Position numbers and translations under genes: made by a program
Assembly (NCBI GenBank): GCA_049431025.1
Contig: JBMTCP010000008.1
Span: 7,105 to 71,104, forward strand
Direction of reading: 5' to 3'
Length of the DNA: 64,000 nt
Source: Bacteroidia bacterium
GTDB lineage: Bacteria; Bacteroidota; Bacteroidia; UBA7662
In this document: in pieces, positions 57,173 to 64,000 of the stretch
Layout of the letters: each line of letters opens with the position of its first letter
Numbering within the stretch: position 1 is the stretch's first letter
The notes under the pieces: generated by a model
What the model saw: the letters and a program-made list of their open reading frames with translations, nothing else
The model's database searches: none
What the model was told of the DNA's origin: nothing

Positions 57173-58044
57173 AAACGGAACACGGTTTTGAACGGGTTAT
57201 GGTGGCCGGCGCCGGCACCATGGGTCAGGGCATAGCCCAACTCTGCATCGAAGCCGGTTTGCCCACCCTGCTCTTTGACGTCAACGCCGCCATGCTGACC
57301 AAAGCCAAGGCCGGAATACAGGCCGTTTGGGATGCCCGGGTTGCCAAAGGCCGTTTGGATGCGGAGCAGGTCCGGCTATGGTCCTCCCAACTCAGCTTTA
57401 GCGACCGCAGCGAGGACCTTAGGGGGGATTTGCTCATCGAGGCGGTGGTGGAATCCGCTCCTGTCAAAAGAACCCTCTTTGCGACGGTCGAAGCCCAGAA
57501 CGGCCCCCAAACCGTTTTGGCCAGCAATACCTCGTCCATTCCCATGGAACAACTTGCTCAGGGACTGGCCAGGCCCGAGCGGGTGGTTGGCCTGCACTTT
57601 TTTAACCCGGCACCGGTCATGAAACTCGTGGAGGTGATTCGCGGACCCGGGACTTCGGCCGAGGTTGCCGAGAAGGTGGATGCCCTGGCCCAAACCATGG
57701 GCAAAATCGTGGTTCATGCCCAAGACTCCCCCGGTTTTATTGTGAACCGGGTCGCGAGGCCGTATTACGCCGAAAGCCTCCGTATCGTGGGCGAAGGCGG
57801 ACTAACACCCGTTGAGGTGGACCGTCTCATGGAATCGGTGGGTTTTCGGATGGGCCCGTTCCGACTCATGGACCTGATCGGCGTGGACACCAATTTGGCC
57901 GTAACCACCTCCGTTTATGAGGGCTTGGGTCAACCGGCCCGCTTTGAACCCCACCCTCTCCAGCAGAACAAAGTCGCTCAAGGCCATAACGGACGCAAAA
58001 GCGGTCGTGGCTTTTACGATTATACCCTCCCCAACCCCTTATGA
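57169..58044 (+). CDS. 3-hydroxyacyl-CoA (3-hydroxybutyryl-CoA) dehydrogenase
   Basis: NAD-binding VMVAGAGTMGQGIAQ; conserved HFFNPAP and NRV motifs; 291 aa. Confidence 0.85.
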   Translation: MKTEHGFERVMVAGAGTMGQGIAQLCIEAGLPTLLFDVNAAMLTKAKAGIQAVWDARVAKGRLDAEQVRLWSSQLSFSDRSEDLRGDLLIEAVVESAPVKRTLFATVEAQNGPQTVLASNTSSIPMEQLAQGLARPERVVGLHFFNPAPVMKLVEVIRGPGTSAEVAEKVDALAQTMGKIVVHAQDSPGFIVNRVARPYYAESLRIVGEGGLTPVEVDRLMESVGFRMGPFRLMDLIGVDTNLAVTTSVYEGLGQPARFEPHPLQQNKVAQGHNGRKSGRGFYDYTLPNPL

Positions 58045-58487
58045 GCCTTTCTCTACGCCTGGCTGGACTCTTTTGGGTCATGGCTACCCTCTTGACCCCC
58101 CTTCAGGGATGCCGAGGGCGGGTTCCCGCCGACCAAATCCCCCAGGTCCCGGTGGATTTTAGCCTAAACCTCCAGCTTCCCACCTATAATCACCTGCAAT
58201 TGGTGGGTCAATACGCCTATATCGACGCCGGTTACCGGGGAATTCTTCTGTACCGTTCGGGTTTGGACCGGCTCCAGGCCTTTGATCGTGCCTGCACCTA
58301 TGCTCCCAGTCAAACCTGCCACAAGGTTGCGGTGGTGGACTCCCTGATGCTGGCCCAATGCGAATGCTGCGAATCCCGCTTTGGTCTCCAGGACGGGCAG
58401 CCCTTTCGAGGCCCCGCCGGCTGGCCCTTACGCTCCTACCGGGTCTTTTTTGATGAAGTCAGTGGCTCGGTGAGGATTACCAATTAA
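58041..58487 (+). CDS. lipoprotein with degenerate Rieske-like [2Fe-2S] domain
   Basis: Lipobox LTPLQGC. The C-terminal fold pattern (GILLYRSG...AFDRACTYAPSQTCHKV...AQCECCESRFGLQDGQPFRGPAGWPLRSYRV) parallels the Rieske CxH...CxxHGSxF...GPA arrangement, but with Cys/Tyr in place of His ligands. Confidence 0.5.
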   Translation: MSLSLRLAGLFWVMATLLTPLQGCRGRVPADQIPQVPVDFSLNLQLPTYNHLQLVGQYAYIDAGYRGILLYRSGLDRLQAFDRACTYAPSQTCHKVAVVDSLMLAQCECCESRFGLQDGQPFRGPAGWPLRSYRVFFDEVSGSVRITN

Positions 58488-58563: not shown

Positions 58564-58824
58564 ATGAAAATCAGCCAGAATATCGCCATCTCCGAGAACG
58601 GTTTTATGTTCAACCCCGCCACCGGGGATTCCTTTAGCACCAACGAAACGGGCAAGGAGATTATCCGACTTCTTCAGGAAGGCAAAAACCAAGCCCAAAT
58701 CCTGGATGCCCTGGAAAGTCATTTTGCGACCGACCGCGCTTCCCTCGAAAAGGACCTCGCTGATTTTTTGTACATGCTGGGCAATTACCGCATCCTGGAC
58801 GTGAACATCGGCCAGACCCGCTAA
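58564..58824 (+). CDS. PqqD-family protein (RiPP recognition element-like peptide chaperone)
   Basis: 86 aa. FNPATGDSFSTNETGKEIIRLL...EKDLADFLYMLGNYRIL follows the PqqD/RRE winged-helix pattern. Confidence 0.7.
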   Translation: MKISQNIAISENGFMFNPATGDSFSTNETGKEIIRLLQEGKNQAQILDALESHFATDRASLEKDLADFLYMLGNYRILDVNIGQTR

Positions 58825-58837
58825 TTCCATAGGTTTT

Positions 58838-59911
58838 ATGAATAGTCCCCAACCCAACGCCTCCGGGCGCATTCCTTGCACCGTGGCGGTGAGCGGCCTC
58901 AACAACGTGGACTCTCCCGGTCCGGGCATGCCCGTTATTCGGGCCTTGCGCCTCAGCGAGCGTTACGATTTTCGTGTGGTGGGCTTGAGTTACGATAGCC
59001 TGGAGCCCGGTCTGTACATGCACGATTTGGTGGACAAATCCTACCAAATACCCTTGCCTTCCGCCGGTACCGGGGCCCTCATGGAACGCCTGCGTTACCT
59101 GCAATCCGTGGAATCCATCGATGTTTTGATTCCCAATTTTGACGCGGAACTCCACAACTTTATTCGCCTGGCGCCCGCTTTGGAAGCCGAGTTGGGCATA
59201 AGGACCTTTTTGCCCGGTTTACAGGAATTTGATGCCCGTCACAAAGCAGTGCTTTTTGAATACGGCCAAAAGCACGGGGTCAAAGTCCCTGTTGCTAACA
59301 CCGTTTACACCATCCATGAATTTCACCGCGCCCTCGAGACTTCGGTTTACCCTTTGGTGGTCAAAGGCAAATACTACGACGCTCAAATTGCCCACAGCGC
59401 GGACGAAGCCCTGAGTGCTTTTTACAAGATCTCGGCCAAATGGGGTTTGCCGGTTTTGGTCCAGCAATACGTCCGGGGTAACGAAGTGAACGTGACCGCA
59501 CTGGGGGATGGAAAAGGGCGTTGCATCGGGGCTGTTCCCATGCGCAAACTGTACATCACCGACAAGGGCAAAGCCTGGGCCGGGGTCTCCATCGAAGACC
59601 ATGAACTCATGCGCCTATCGGCGGACTTGATTGCTTCTGCGCGCTGGAAAGGCCCCTGCGAATTGGAATACATGCGCACCGAAGACGGCGAATACTACCT
59701 GATGGAAATGAACCCCCGTTTTCCGGCCTGGGTTTACTTGGCTGTTGGTTGCGGTCAAAACCACCCCGAAGCCTTGGTGGATATGGCCCTGGGCCACCAA
59801 GCACCGGTTATGGATACCTACGAAATCGGCAAAATGTTTATCCGCTATTCCCAGGACCTGGTGGTCCCCATGCAGGAATTCGAAAAAATATCCACCCTCG
59901 GCGAACTCTAA
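58838..59911 (+). CDS. ATP-grasp domain carboxylate-amine ligase
   Basis: ATP-grasp core (LVVKGKYYDA, LVQQYVRGNEVNV, EYYLMEMNPRF Mg/ATP motif); 357 aa. Confidence 0.75.
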   Translation: MNSPQPNASGRIPCTVAVSGLNNVDSPGPGMPVIRALRLSERYDFRVVGLSYDSLEPGLYMHDLVDKSYQIPLPSAGTGALMERLRYLQSVESIDVLIPNFDAELHNFIRLAPALEAELGIRTFLPGLQEFDARHKAVLFEYGQKHGVKVPVANTVYTIHEFHRALETSVYPLVVKGKYYDAQIAHSADEALSAFYKISAKWGLPVLVQQYVRGNEVNVTALGDGKGRCIGAVPMRKLYITDKGKAWAGVSIEDHELMRLSADLIASARWKGPCELEYMRTEDGEYYLMEMNPRFPAWVYLAVGCGQNHPEALVDMALGHQAPVMDTYEIGKMFIRYSQDLVVPMQEFEKISTLGEL

Positions 59912-59984: not shown

Positions 59985-61349
59985 ATGAGCAAAAAAACCT
60001 ACGAGCGCCCTTATTTGCGCAAGCTTAACGCCGGCCTCGGTAACAAATTCGGAACACGGAATTCCCAGCTTCCGGTTACCGAAATTGATGGGGTACCGGT
60101 GGCCTCCATCATGGAAAAATACGGCTCCCCGTGTTTTGTGTTATCCGAACAAACCATACGCCAAACCTACCGCAATGCGGTCCGGGCTTTTGGTACCCGT
60201 TACCCCAAAGTCCAAATGGCCTGGTCTTACAAAACCAATTACCTCAACGCCGTTTGCCGGATTTTTCACGAAGAAGGATCCTGGGCCGAAGTGGTGAGCA
60301 TTTTTGAATACCGCAAAGCCCTGGCCAACGGGGTTCCCGGTCACCAAATTCTTTTTAACGGCCCCGATAAATCCGCCGAGGACCTGCTTATTGCCGTCCA
60401 AAACGGATCCCTCATCCACATGGACCATCTGGATGAACTGTACCAGCTTTCCGAAATTCTGGCCGCCAAGGACCTCAAGGCCCGGGTCGCCCTCCGTATC
60501 AACATGGATACCGGGGTGTACCCGCTCTGGGATCGCTTTGGGTTCAATTACGAAAACGGATCCGCCTGGACCGCCATTACCAAAGTCATGGCCCAACCGC
60601 GCATGCAATTGGTGGGCCTCCATTGCCATATCGGAACCTACATGCTAAGCGCACAGGCCTATGCTGTTGCGGCCAACAAATTATGCGACCTGGCTTTGGA
60701 AATCCGCAACCAATACCAACACCGCATCGAATACCTGGACCTTGGCGGCGGGTTTGCTTCGGGAAATACCCTCAAAGGATCGTATTTGCAGGGCTCGGAT
60801 ATAATTCCTACCATGGATGATTATGCCGAAGCCATATCGGGAGCAATTCTTCAGCATCCTTTTGGGATGAGCGGCGAATTGCCCACCCTCTTTTTGGAAT
60901 CCGGTCGGGCCTTGATTGACGATGCCGGTTATTTGCTGGGTACGGTATTGGCGCTCAAACGCTTGGGCGATGGACGACGGGCAACCATTATGGATTTTGG
61001 GGTTAATTTATTGTTCACCTCGTTCTGGTACGAACACCGAATTTCTCCCGCCCAGGATTATTCCAGCCATCACGAAGACATGGTTTTGTACGGACCTTTG
61101 TGCATGAACATTGATGTGGTTCGCGAAAATGTTTCTCTGCCCTTGCTCCAAAAGGGCGACCGTGTGGTGGTGCATCGGGTTGGCGCGTACAACATGACCC
61201 AGTGGATGCAGTTTATCCAAATGCGCCCCAACGTAGTTTTGATCGATTCGCGCGGTGAAGTTCATTTGATCCGCCGACGGGAAGACGTTCAAACCCTTAA
61301 CGATCAGGAACTTATTCCGACCTATCTGGAGGGAAACCAAGGGTCGTAA
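59985..61349 (+). CDS. PLP-dependent decarboxylase, fold type III (Orn/DAP/Arg decarboxylase family)
   Basis: PLP-lysine context WSYKTNY, LDLGGGF, ESGRALID and GPLC motifs as in DAP/ornithine/carboxynorspermidine decarboxylases; 454 aa. Confidence 0.75.
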   Translation: MSKKTYERPYLRKLNAGLGNKFGTRNSQLPVTEIDGVPVASIMEKYGSPCFVLSEQTIRQTYRNAVRAFGTRYPKVQMAWSYKTNYLNAVCRIFHEEGSWAEVVSIFEYRKALANGVPGHQILFNGPDKSAEDLLIAVQNGSLIHMDHLDELYQLSEILAAKDLKARVALRINMDTGVYPLWDRFGFNYENGSAWTAITKVMAQPRMQLVGLHCHIGTYMLSAQAYAVAANKLCDLALEIRNQYQHRIEYLDLGGGFASGNTLKGSYLQGSDIIPTMDDYAEAISGAILQHPFGMSGELPTLFLESGRALIDDAGYLLGTVLALKRLGDGRRATIMDFGVNLLFTSFWYEHRISPAQDYSSHHEDMVLYGPLCMNIDVVRENVSLPLLQKGDRVVVHRVGAYNMTQWMQFIQMRPNVVLIDSRGEVHLIRRREDVQTLNDQELIPTYLEGNQGS

Positions 61350-61350
61350 C

Positions 61351-63543
61351 ATGGCCCGGCCAACTGGACTACGCTCATTTTGGAACGGCCCCGTGAAGGG
61401 GGTTCTCAACAGCTATGCCCAGTTGTTTTTTGCCCTACATCCTTTTTTGGGATTCTTGGCCCTGGGGGTGAGTTTTATGGACCCCTTGCTGGGGTTCTGC
61501 GGGCTGTTATCGGTGGTCCTGGTGCAGCTGATGGGACGTTTGACGGGCCAAAACCGCGAACTTCTGCAGGAAGGGATGTACGGCTTCAATGCGTTGCTTT
61601 TGGGTTTGGCCATGGCCCATCGATACCGCGTTGATCCCCCCATGCTTTTGGTGTTACTGGCCGGTTTGGTTTTGTTGCTGACCCTGATTGTTTGGTGGAA
61701 TCGGCATTTGGGACGCTACGGCCTGCCCTACCTTACCTTGCCTTTTGTCCTGACCTACTGGGTTTTGATGGAAGGTTCGGATAGCTTGGCCGCGGTAACG
61801 CTGCGCTACCCCGGCACGACAGGGACATCGGGTCAAGCGGAATTGTTGGCTTCGGCGGGCCTGGAAATAGCGGCCGCCGATCCCTTTTGGAAAAGTTTTT
61901 TGCGAACCCTGGGTTCCATATATTTTCAGGACTCGGTGCTTGCCGGTTTGCTATTGGCGATGGGTTTGCTGATCCAAAGCCGTTTGTCGTTTTTGTTGGC
62001 GGTGGGCGGATATGCCCTGGCTTTTGGTTTGTTTCAATCCATGGGCGCATCGACCGTTCCCTTAACTGATTTTTTGGTGGGTAGTAATTTTGTGTTTATG
62101 GCCATCGCCTTGGGGGGATTTTATCTTGTGCCCTCGTTGGGTACGCTGGGCCTGGTGGCGCTTTTGACCCCGGTTTTGGCCGTTCTTATGTTTGCGTTTG
62201 AAGGTTGGTTAGCCCCCTGGGACTTGCCCCCTTTTACCTTGGCCTTTAGTGGGTTAACGCTGTTGGTTTTGTATTTTTTGCAGTCGTCTCCTCCAATCCG
62301 CGGGCTAGTTCCGGTTGCCCTGCAGTATTATTCTCCCGAAAAAACGCTGTACAAGCACGCCGTCAATGCTCAGCGTTTGGCCAACCTGTATACCCCGCGA
62401 TTTCATTTGCCCTTTTGGGGAACCTGGACCGTGACCCAGGGCTACCAAGGTCAACACACCCACCTGGGGGATTGGTCCAAGGCTTTGGATTTTGAAATCA
62501 CGGACCAGGAGGGCCGTTACGCCAGCGGGGATGGCCAGCGTCTGGAAGATTACTATTGTTATAACAAACCCGTAGTCGCTCCGCTCGAAGGCACGGTGGT
62601 CGCCTTGACCAACCATGTACCGGATAACCCCATAGGCGCGGTGGATTTGGAGCAAAACTGGGGCAATTCCCTGGTTCTGCAGCACACCAACGGCTTGTAC
62701 ACCCAATACTCTCATTTGCGCCAAGACAGCTTCAAGGTGGCTTTGGGCCAATGGGTGGTTCGAGGACAGGTCATGGCTACCTGTGGTAATTCCGGCCGTT
62801 CGCCCCGTCCGCATTTGCATTTTCAGGTGCAGCATAGCCCCGAAATCGGCGCTCGTACCCTTGCTCATCCCATGGCCTATTACCGCTTGGAGGAGGGTGC
62901 GGATTCAGTTTTGCAGCGCTGGTCCGTCCCAAGCGAGGGTCAGCGGGTGAGTTCGGTGGATGCGGCACCGGACCTTGTATCGGCTTTTGCATGGAAGCCC
63001 GGTCAGGTTTTGCGGATGCAGTCCGAGGAACGCCCGGACTGGATGGTGGATTGGAAGGTAGGAACGGATGCTTACAACCGAACCTATTTGTATTGTTCCG
63101 CTACGCGTTCTACGATGTGGTATGTCAACGATGGGGTTATGTTTTGGGCCTATGATTTTGAGGGTTCGCGTTCGTCTTTGCTTTACCGTTTTTATGGGAG
63201 CGTTTATCGCTTATCCTTAGTTCAGGATGCCGGGATGGTGGACGATGTTATGCCCCTGATTCATTTTAGTCGTCCTTTGTTACGGATAATACAGGATCTT
63301 GTTGCCCCTTTGTTTCTTTTTTACAGCGTTCACTACCGCTCCGAGGTCTTGAAGAAGGGCTCGGGTCCAACCGCCGATGAGGGGGCTTTGCACAGCTCGG
63401 TATCTTCCAAGGTGCTTGGTCGCCCGGTACGGCAAATCGATTTTGAACTCTATACCCGGGATGGTTCTCTCCATCGATGGGTACAACAGCCTCCCAAGGG
63501 TTCCAACCAGCCTCCAACAGCCTACCGATGCAGTTGGAGTTAA
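61351..63543 (+). CDS. fusion protein: urea-transporter-like polytopic membrane domain + peptidase M23 (LytM) domain + C-terminal domain of unknown function
   Basis: The N-terminal roughly 330 aa is UT-like (YAQLFF...GMYGFNALLLGLAM). The M23 motifs HTHLGD, NSGRSPRPHLHFQV and HxH lie at about 62380-62850. 730 aa in total. Confidence 0.6.
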   Translation: MARPTGLRSFWNGPVKGVLNSYAQLFFALHPFLGFLALGVSFMDPLLGFCGLLSVVLVQLMGRLTGQNRELLQEGMYGFNALLLGLAMAHRYRVDPPMLLVLLAGLVLLLTLIVWWNRHLGRYGLPYLTLPFVLTYWVLMEGSDSLAAVTLRYPGTTGTSGQAELLASAGLEIAAADPFWKSFLRTLGSIYFQDSVLAGLLLAMGLLIQSRLSFLLAVGGYALAFGLFQSMGASTVPLTDFLVGSNFVFMAIALGGFYLVPSLGTLGLVALLTPVLAVLMFAFEGWLAPWDLPPFTLAFSGLTLLVLYFLQSSPPIRGLVPVALQYYSPEKTLYKHAVNAQRLANLYTPRFHLPFWGTWTVTQGYQGQHTHLGDWSKALDFEITDQEGRYASGDGQRLEDYYCYNKPVVAPLEGTVVALTNHVPDNPIGAVDLEQNWGNSLVLQHTNGLYTQYSHLRQDSFKVALGQWVVRGQVMATCGNSGRSPRPHLHFQVQHSPEIGARTLAHPMAYYRLEEGADSVLQRWSVPSEGQRVSSVDAAPDLVSAFAWKPGQVLRMQSEERPDWMVDWKVGTDAYNRTYLYCSATRSTMWYVNDGVMFWAYDFEGSRSSLLYRFYGSVYRLSLVQDAGMVDDVMPLIHFSRPLLRIIQDLVAPLFLFYSVHYRSEVLKKGSGPTADEGALHSSVSSKVLGRPVRQIDFELYTRDGSLHRWVQQPPKGSNQPPTAYRCSWS

Positions 63544-64000
63544 TCCACCCGGTTCGGCTTCCAGCATGGCTTTTGGGGGGCTTATGGCTGGTTTTTGGCG
63601 CCTATTCGGCTCAGGCCCAGCCAGGACGGGTGGATAGTTTGACCCGTTATGCCTTGGCCTACGGGGAATACGTGGACCTTATTCAGGCCGGTCGTCAGGC
63701 CATCAAGGAAGGTTGGGTAACGGCCGAATTGCATCGACGCATGGCTTTGGCGTATCGAATGTTACAAGACCATGAGCGCGCCGTTGACCATTGGCGCACT
63801 GCTTCCCGCATGGTTCCCGGTTCGGCACTTTTGGCCGGGGAGTATCGACAGGAATTGTGGACTTGTCGGCGTTGGGACGAATGGCGTTGGGCCACGATGC
63901 AAAACGAGGCGGATGATTTAGGCGTTTTGGCCTTGGATTATGCGGTGGTGAATGCGGGCCTTTTGTACCCACCGGGTTCAGGTTCCTTTCGGGATGAGGT
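63528..64000 (+). CDS. secreted TPR-like repeat protein (partial, runs off window end)
   Basis: Not in the supplied ORF track because there is no stop before the window end. An ATG at 63528 gives MQLELIHPVRLPAWLLGGLWLVFGAYSAQAQ (a signal peptide), followed by TPR-like helical repeats. Confidence 0.5.
   Translation, partial: MQLELIHPVRLPAWLLGGLWLVFGAYSAQAQPGRVDSLTRYALAYGEYVDLIQAGRQAIKEGWVTAELHRRMALAYRMLQDHERAVDHWRTASRMVPGSALLAGEYRQELWTCRRWDEWRWATMQNEADDLGVLALDYAVVNAGLLYPPGSGSFRDE

Follow-up and report, generated by a model that had tools for sequence, protein, structure and literature searches.

The 64,000-nt stretch of Bacteroidia bacterium DNA analysed here (lineage UBA7662; GenBank assembly GCA_049431025.1, contig JBMTCP010000008.1, positions 7,105 to 71,104 of the forward strand; hereafter the window) carries at positions 61351-63543 of its plus strand a single uninterrupted open reading frame (ORF) of 730 aa, in which a urea-transporter (UT) domain is joined to an M23 metallopeptidase domain and to a further C-terminal region. 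A previous sequence-only reading had proposed this three-part layout, and Pfam matches for both named domains as well as structural superposition agree with it. The ORF almost certainly encodes a three-domain inner-membrane protein, referred to below as UT-M23, in which a UT-fold channel is followed by an M23 zinc peptidase and a beta-rich C-terminal domain (CTD), with the following boundaries:

61351..62379 (+): UT-fold channel domain, aa 1-343, including a C1-like cytoplasmic helix at aa 329-343

62410..62850 (+): M23 zinc-metallopeptidase domain, aa 354-500, with the catalytic set Y365, H371, D380, H455, H488 and H490

62857..63540 (+): family-specific C-terminal beta-rich domain, aa 503-730, 228 aa

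The N-terminal part scored well above the cutoff of the Pfam UT family (PF03253; aa 17-309, E 2.6e-46, 158.6 bits versus a cutoff of 25), the match being full length (profile positions 3-290 of 292), and Peptidase_M23 (PF01551) was recovered at aa 405-495 (E 1.7e-16, 60.6 bits versus 28.7). A family profile built from 69 UT-M23-CTD members, which covers both UT repeats, matched solved urea channels end to end, among them human UT-A (8blo) and the Desulfovibrio channel dvUT (3k3f, 3me1), and also aligned with many M23 structures. AlphaFold2 modelling of the full-length protein from the family alignment yielded three packed domains, with a predicted local distance difference test score (pLDDT) of 90.9 and a predicted template modelling score (pTM) of 0.84. 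Foldseek comparison of this model gave TM-scores of 0.86 against dvUT (3k3g/3me1), 0.79 against human UT-B, and 0.70-0.78 against the LytM/M23 domains of EnpA, EnvC and DipM. Model superposition and profile alignment further uncovered the two inverted five-helix repeats and the Pa and Pb half-helices that characterize the UT fold.

The M23 family is defined by an H(x)nD motif, with n running from 3 to 12, plus an HxH motif, and its catalytic motifs also take in an auxiliary His ~30 residues upstream and an oxyanion Tyr (PMC9662197). In UT-M23, the first of these motifs is H371-x8-D380, a spacing that falls in the known range because of these limits on n, whereas the HxH pair is H488-L-H490 and the auxiliary His is H455. 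All 69 family sequences have H371, D380, H455, H488 and H490, and the oxyanion Tyr, Y365, is nearly invariant (at least 90%). The sequence-only reading was thus right in calling an M23 domain but misplaced the zinc-binding Asp, since the ligand is D380 in 'ALDF' and not the Asp of 'HTHLGD' (D374), a position that holds D or E in only 63 of the 69 sequences. Judging from these conserved residues, the M23 domain looks catalytically competent. Its nearest relatives by sequence are the DD-endo/carboxypeptidases Pgp3, Csd3 and MepM, with which it has in common the fold, the H(x)nD plus HxH zinc site, and the auxiliary His and Tyr; it is set apart by the H-x8-D spacing, an invariant Cys (C478) beside HxH, a predicted cytoplasmic site and a channel tether.

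The pairing of the two domains is genuine and conserved, for the same architecture occurs in many independent assemblies. A homology search returned 627 matches, the best 120 of which are almost all 690-750 aa long and carry both Pfam domains, with identities as low as 37%, and the architecture is kept down to ~36% identity in independent assemblies from many sources. Scanning one genome per species revealed at least 566 encoding loci, nearly all of them in metagenome-assembled genomes of uncultured Bacteroidota and distributed over Chitinophagales, Flavobacteriales, Sphingobacteriales, Cytophagales, Bacteroidales and Kapaibacterium. One UT-M23 locus (L021, contig CAVXOV010000019.1) bears the label 'uncultured Candidatus Saccharibacteria'; since all the others come from Bacteroidota, this contig was probably mis-binned. 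Public records give the homologues no other names than 'urea transporter' or 'urea transporter/murein DD-endopeptidase MepM'. The combination 'UT + M23 peptidase (bacteria)' was catalogued in 2026 among newly noticed domain combinations, with one model (A0A399T3G1) and no discussion of function or gene context (PMC12998343). Beyond that entry, the searchable literature yielded no description of the operon, topology or function of this protein; the domain pairing is already known, and nothing was found there on the further features reported below, namely the conserved operon with its alternative set of enzymes, the M23 domain predicted to be cytoplasmic, the changes in the pore and the CTD exclusive to this architecture.

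The C-terminal region (aa ~500-730), in which the sequence-only reading had recognized no motif, indeed matched no Pfam or NCBIfam model. Structure prediction of this domain alone nonetheless produced a confident beta-rich fold with three helices (pLDDT 91.8, pTM 0.86). A CTD profile run against 1.84 billion representatives collected 480 matches; full-length ones always place the domain at ~505-730 of ~720-750-aa proteins, and the short ones look like contig-edge fragments. Because all full-length matches hold this same position, the CTD is, as judged from the sequences searched, exclusive to the UT-M23 architecture. The fold bears a weak similarity to LolA-like unclosed barrels, so that the modelled domain is at most LolA-like, which hints at hydrophobic-ligand binding.

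On which side of the membrane the two C-terminal domains lie bears directly on their role. In solved UTs, both the N and the C terminus are intracellular, a long extracellular loop joins the repeats, and a cytoplasmic C1 helix follows helix 5b (PMC11589576). Charge distribution over the family follows the same orientation: the segment after the last transmembrane (TM) helix, which includes the C1-like helix (aa 313-352), averages 6.9 K+R and 1.6 D+E, whereas the inter-repeat loop (aa 144-180) is acidic, with means of 1.2 K+R and 4.3 D+E. Summed by UT topology, K+R amount to ~12.9 in inside loops versus ~2.1 in outside loops. No hydrophobic or TM segment was found after residue 310, nor any signal peptide on the protein. 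UT homology with both termini inside, the positive-inside bias and the absence of a later TM segment together predict that the M23 domain and the CTD very probably lie in the cytoplasm, at the inner mouth of the channel, and the in silico evidence did not place the M23 domain outside the cytoplasm. Conserved Cys pairs, considered as a sign of a periplasmic site, were discarded as such: C478 is present in 136 of 136 sequences as against 120 of 136 for C403, and C582 in 130 of 136 as against 91 of 136 for C727, i.e., C478 stays where C403 is lost and C582 where C727 is lost. Since the members of each pair do not co-vary, these Cys are not obligate disulfides. The roles that the M23 review lists all concern peptidoglycan hydrolysis outside the cytoplasm (PMC9662197). 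A cytoplasmic site, itself unusual in this family, would make such a role unlikely here, and a peptidoglycan endopeptidase, one of the options named in the sequence-only reading, thus fits poorly with the inside termini, the charge bias and the lack of a TM segment past residue 310.

UT channels are, to our knowledge, regarded as dedicated urea pores. Urea conduction has been assigned to the motif Q(Pb)-T(5b)-T(5a)-Q(Pa) (PMC11589576), which is incomplete in the 69-sequence family. The LP..PF signatures are invariant, T(5b) is T or S in 68 of 69 sequences, T(5a) is S or T in 54 and Q(Pa) is Q in 49; however, Q(Pb), on the periplasmic side, is G, A or S in 68 sequences and Met in the remaining one, never Q or E, and F(5a) is Leu in 68. 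Consistently, the protein scored only 109 bits against the NCBIfam urea-transporter equivalog of Yut type (TIGR03441), whose cutoff is 274.6. UT-M23 therefore shares with the UT/SLC14 channels (dvUT, Yut, UT-A, UT-B) the full-length fold with its two inverted repeats and LP..PF motifs, the T(5b), T(5a)-like and mostly Q(Pa) pore residues, and a cytoplasmic C1-like helix. It differs from them in the Gly/Ala/Ser at Q(Pb), the Leu at F(5a) and the score far below the equivalog cutoff, in the fusion to ~390 aa of enzyme plus CTD, predicted to be cytoplasmic, and in its context, which has no urease and is instead linked to exported tetratricopeptide repeat (TPR) and outer-membrane (OM) beta-barrel proteins. 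The loss of Gln at Q(Pb) is consistent with a changed permeant.

That context is an operon. UT-M23 occupies, almost beyond doubt, the fourth place in a self-contained unit of six closely coupled genes, which we refer to as type A and which encodes, in this order, a PqqD-like protein, an ATP-grasp enzyme, a pyridoxal phosphate (PLP)-dependent decarboxylase, UT-M23-CTD, a TPR/OM beta-barrel protein and a TPR protein. The following partners fall in the window:

58564..58824 (+): PqqD-like protein, 86 aa, of the peptide-binding RRE (RiPP recognition element) type; Pfam PqqD, E 4.1e-12, 46.7 bits versus a cutoff of 23.4

58838..59911 (+): ATP-grasp ligase, 357 aa; Pfam ATPgrasp_Ter, E 1.6e-10

59985..61349 (+): alanine-racemase-fold PLP decarboxylase, 454 aa, FigC/BtrK-like; Pfam Orn_Arg_deC_N and Orn_DAP_Arg_deC

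63528..64000 (+): 5′ part of the TPR plus OM beta-barrel protein, cut by the window end; ~445 aa in relatives

Junctions are 1 nt apart or overlapping, as illustrated by the decarboxylase stop, which lies 1 nt before the UT-M23 ATG, and by the barrel-protein gene, which overlaps the UT-M23 stop by 16 nt. The same tight block, in an order identical to that of the window, recurs in the distant genomes of Kapaibacterium, Fluviicola and Bacteroidetes B1, with sizes of ~83 aa for PqqD, ~350 for ATP-grasp, 452 for the decarboxylase, ~445 for the fifth protein and ~204 for the TPR protein. Among 32 non-redundant type-A loci, none of the six genes is missing from more than one, and no other neighbour is conserved except for a histidine kinase (HisK)/LytTR pair in about a third. 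In the wider context comparison set of 85 UT-M23 loci, the barrel protein was found in 80 and the TPR protein in 79, the misses being truncated contigs. Searches for Rfam riboswitches or other RNAs near the operon were negative in the window and four related loci. PADLOC returned no defence-system match either, and an anti-phage role was rejected on this basis.

The PqqD-like gene is found in 31 of the 32 type-A loci, where it overlaps or abuts the ATP-grasp gene. Its product has a conserved N-terminal motif, NIAISExGFIFNPxxGDSFSTN, and in the window scored below cutoff against all PqqD-type NCBIfam models. The C-terminal tails are variable (with a ...QTR end in the window's clade), which does not support a LysW-like carrier role, and the 'GDSF' stretch, a candidate phosphopantetheine-type site, turned out in the Pfam alignment to be the normal PqqD beta-strand motif. 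With its PqqD fold and variable tails, the protein shows no carrier site of the kind used by BtrI/BtrJ/BtrK or LysW/LysX, where attachment is to a phosphopantetheinyl Ser in an acyl carrier protein fold or to a conserved C-terminal Glu. The ATP-grasp enzyme, encoded in 32 of 32 type-A loci, is by contrast strikingly uniform: its mean column identity across lineages reaches 79%, with more than 100 invariant columns, as against ~40% identity for the far less conserved UT-M23 protein that accompanies it. As read from the alignment, this conservation implies tightly constrained chemistry. Its relatives in the PDB are generic only (2pn1, carbamoyl phosphate synthase and biotin carboxylase), and none of its NCBIfam matches, PRK12767 ('carbamoyl phosphate synthase-like protein') included, reaches the cutoff.

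The decarboxylase found its best PDB match in FigC (7kh2, 214 bits), well ahead of genuine diaminopimelate decarboxylases (DAPDC; 1twi, 158 bits, and no other above that), and BtrK was also among the matches. It stayed below the cutoffs of both the LysA model TIGR01048 (228.1 versus 297.9 bits) and the FslC/FigC model NF041039 (215.6 versus 500 bits). General catalytic residues are kept; however, the citrate-binding H357 and R387 of FigC are replaced by Ile and Gln, and a FigC-like N-citrylornithine specificity was rejected for this reason. Because the citrate residues are replaced and the scores fall below cutoff, the substrate would differ from those of the FigC and LysA types.

Downstream of UT-M23, both proteins carry Sec signal peptides. 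The first of them, whose N-terminus in the window is signal-peptide-like and whose orthologues occupy 32 of 32 type-A loci, has TPR matches, an OMP_b-brl match (E 2.2e-8, in the Fluviicola locus L003) and a consensus C-terminus ...KWxF, i.e., the signal peptide, N-terminal TPR and C-terminal barrel with an aromatic end that make up an export architecture of TPR plus barrel. This architecture is common to PgaA, BcsC, PelB and Slam, with which no sequence homology was found. Searches for homologues of known function returned only TPR matches for the barrel protein and generic ATP-grasp matches for the ligase.

Several features border the operon in some lineages. Immediately before the PqqD gene, L003 has a HisK plus LytTR-type regulator pair (L003:3263-4935), as do L017, L019, L022, L024, L025, L051, L074 and L083, and this pair may regulate the operon. 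In Kapaibacterium (L001:2225-5269), a gene whose 1014-aa product has three M23 stretches as well as a weak, sub-threshold Por_Secre_tail match (type IX secretion C-terminal sorting domain; 20 bits versus 27) ends 20 nt before the PqqD gene, which suggests co-transcription with the operon, confined to this lineage. In Fluviicola, the operon TPR gene is immediately followed by a second, ~205-aa TPR paralogue (L003:12263-12880) and then by a TonB-dependent receptor-like gene. In the window itself, a 148-aa ORF just upstream of PqqD (58041-58487, plus strand) combines a signal of the lipoprotein type (...LLTPLQGC) with a C-terminal half rich in Cys, and matched no Pfam or NCBIfam model; it is conserved, among the 85 loci, only in the closest relative (L006) and therefore lies outside the conserved operon.

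A second operon type emerged from the 56 loci with enough upstream flank for comparison. The trio of PqqD, ATP-grasp and fold-III decarboxylase genes is missing in 28 of them, and 26 of these 28 have instead three conserved genes divergently upstream (e.g., L028, L029, L030, L036 and L066). In the example locus, L028:1621-6662 on the minus strand, these type-B genes encode:

Unassigned: a ~160-aa protein with no family match

Decarboxylase: 931 aa, fold-type I, of the Orn/Lys/Arg group, extended by ~300 aa at its N-terminus; OKR_DC_1, E 4.6e-79

Ligase: a 499-aa ATP-grasp protein annotated 'biotin carboxylase'; PRK06524, 741 bits

The type-B ATP-grasp protein is only marginally similar to that of the window. 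In both operon types, hence, the core of UT-M23, TPR and barrel proteins is accompanied by a ligase that depends on ATP and by a decarboxylase of amino acids, the enzymes being non-orthologous. From sequence comparison, type B looks like a non-orthologous displacement, which supports a functional link between these activities and the core. It forms a single clade nested in type A, with 60-97% identity.

We propose that these genes make, release and let out a small amine- or amide-type specialized metabolite, a reading to which we assign a probability of roughly 40%. The ATP-grasp ligase would join a carboxylate to an amino acid through an amide bond, and the PqqD-like protein may direct it to a peptide. 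The decarboxylase, which resembles clade-2 enzymes, would then remove the alpha-carboxylate of the conjugated amino acid, as FigC, SbnH, MccE and BtrK do. At the channel vestibule, the M23 domain would hydrolyse the amide bond and so release or unmask the product, while the CTD, at most LolA-like, may hold a scaffold or a hydrophobic part of the substrate. The small product could thereafter diffuse through the modified UT pore to the periplasm, export being the putative direction, and leave through the dedicated TPR/beta-barrel OM protein. A substrate-channelled peptidase, as the sequence-only reading had suggested, remains the most attractive view of UT-M23.

The decarboxylase step has its precedent in clade 2, in which FigC, SbnH, AcsE, MccE and BtrK have been grouped with DAPDC; the non-DAPDC enzymes decarboxylate amino acids that already form part of a conjugate, the partner being citrate, a peptide-nucleotide or the 87-aa carrier BtrI (PMC7857480). 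Homologues of this clade other than DAPDC and D-ODC have accordingly been assigned to conjugated amino acids and specialized metabolism, and the same has been proposed for its new members (PMC7857480). In the nearest parallels to this chemistry, FigA/FigC (rhizoferrin), SbnE/SbnH and especially BtrI/BtrJ/BtrK (butirosin), as in the proposed pathway, an amide-forming ligase precedes an alanine-racemase-fold PLP decarboxylase that acts on a conjugated amino acid. The Btr system, whose BtrJ we take to be an ATP-grasp enzyme, also resembles the type-A operon in that a small protein is encoded alongside (BtrI, 87 aa; here ~85 aa). The small protein of type A, however, has the PqqD/RRE fold rather than that of an acyl carrier protein and no phosphopantetheine-type site, the citrate residues of FigC are replaced, and the ATP-grasp enzyme is not close to any characterized ligase. 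PQQ, mycofactocin and 'pearlin' pathways offer a further parallel, for they too combine a PqqD-type protein (RRE) and modifying enzymes with a metallopeptidase that could excise one or more residues; they differ from the present locus, where no precursor gene and no radical-SAM or PEARL enzyme was found and the M23 domain is fused to a channel. Coupling of membrane passage to amide hydrolysis is likewise established, both for urea channels with urease and for prodrug peptidases of the ClbP type. Channel and hydrolase are, unlike in the urease systems, a single polypeptide here, and the peptidase domain of ClbP is periplasmic whereas the M23 domain of UT-M23 is predicted on the cytoplasmic side.

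Several observations weigh against the proposed pathway. No gene for a precursor or scaffold peptide was detected: type-A loci have no conserved small ORF within 700 nt upstream of PqqD, where the largest ORF cluster is the 3′ end of the LytTR regulator gene, and the intra-operon gaps are too short to hold one, which leaves a remote or very short precursor. Of the components of an RRE-dependent pathway, the PqqD-family element is thus present and the precursor peptide gene is missing. Furthermore, the PqqD-like protein has no conserved acceptor tail, the ATP-grasp enzyme has no characterized close relative, so that no substrate can be named, and the substrate-binding residues of FigC are replaced in the decarboxylase. 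The narrowness of UT pores restricts the range of possible permeants. Finally, the type-B swap is a single event in one clade, and the association of ligase and decarboxylase with the core could for that reason reflect inherited synteny.

Transport in the opposite direction deserves consideration, although we regard it as unlikely. A small nutrient or signal of amide- or peptide-like nature would enter through the OM barrel and the UT pore, and its hydrolysis by the cytoplasmic M23 domain would drive passive influx by metabolic trapping, as urease does with Yut or UreI; the amino acid set free would then be decarboxylated and re-ligated. UT channels are indeed passive and bidirectional, bacterial ones are classically coupled to a cytoplasmic amidohydrolase, urease, and the M23 domain is predicted at just that mouth of the pore; besides, fold-I Orn/Lys/Arg decarboxylases such as the type-B enzyme are often catabolic or serve in acid stress. 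Two hallmarks of biosynthesis, a ligase that consumes ATP and a peptide chaperone of the PqqD type, nevertheless speak against uptake, and the type-A decarboxylase groups with enzymes of specialized metabolism. Import in Bacteroidota commonly relies on TonB-dependent receptors of the SusC type, whereas a TPR plus barrel architecture typically serves export or assembly, and M23 substrates, being at least dipeptide-sized, exceed the known UT permeants.

It is improbable that UT-M23 is what its public annotation says, a genuine urea (or ammonia/amide) channel, with the M23 domain and CTD as a regulatory or gating appendage and the neighbouring enzymes serving nitrogen or polyamine metabolism, e.g., an arginine-agmatine-urea route. 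The full-length UT match, the three of four polar pore positions that are largely kept and the basic amino-acid decarboxylases adjoining in both operon types would suit this view; the 109 bits against the equivalog, the loss of Gln/Glu at Q(Pb) and the Leu at F(5a) would not. Neither urease nor agmatinase genes are conserved nearby in the 32 type-A loci or the three genomes compared, the invariant full catalytic set argues for an enzyme and not a plug, and clade-2 decarboxylases have been argued not to be polyamine enzymes (PMC7857480).

Envelope remodelling has still less in its favour. It would require an inverted UT that is mainly an anchor and a periplasmic M23 domain that cleaves peptidoglycan alongside the TPR and OM-barrel proteins, much as in systems of the DipM, NlpD or EnvC type. 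Every characterized M23 enzyme does act on peptidoglycan outside the cytoplasm (PMC9662197), the nearest relatives by sequence are Pgp3, Csd3 and MepM, and the two universally linked partners are exported. Such an inversion, however, runs counter to the intracellular termini of all solved UT structures and to a strong positive-inside bias in the canonical direction; there is no extra TM helix to flip the C-terminal part, the Cys residues show no disulfide-type covariation, and the cytoplasmic ligase, decarboxylase and PqqD genes would be left unexplained. As for the frameshift that the sequence-only reading had warned of, in which sequencing or assembly would have joined adjacent UT and M23 genes, we give it practically no credence and reject it, since the ~730-aa architecture is kept in at least 566 loci and, down to ~36% identity, in independent assemblies, the best 120 homologues carry both domains, the CTD occurs only in the UT-M23 context, and AlphaFold2 packs the three domains with a pTM of 0.84.

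The make-release-exit pathway can be phrased more boldly, at the price of being a rather doubtful proposition: a previously unrecognized trans-envelope pathway confined to Bacteroidota, in which the product of a peptide- or carrier-templated ligation and decarboxylation is freed by the first known cytoplasmic M23 enzyme, handed directly into a UT pore repurposed for a permeant other than urea and led out through the TPR/barrel protein. If true, this would be a one-polypeptide 'release-and-exit' device whose product belongs to a new class of natural products or of metabolites that modify the envelope. The M23 family would likewise reach a new compartment and substrate class if one of its intact domains sits on the cytoplasmic side of a channel. 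The compact six-gene unit is found in hundreds of mostly uncultured Bacteroidota species, its pathway hidden by misleading annotation names such as 'urea transporter', 'diaminopimelate decarboxylase' and 'ATP-grasp protein', and the existence of so widespread an enzyme-fused subfamily with an altered pore suggests that the UT fold carries small molecules other than urea.

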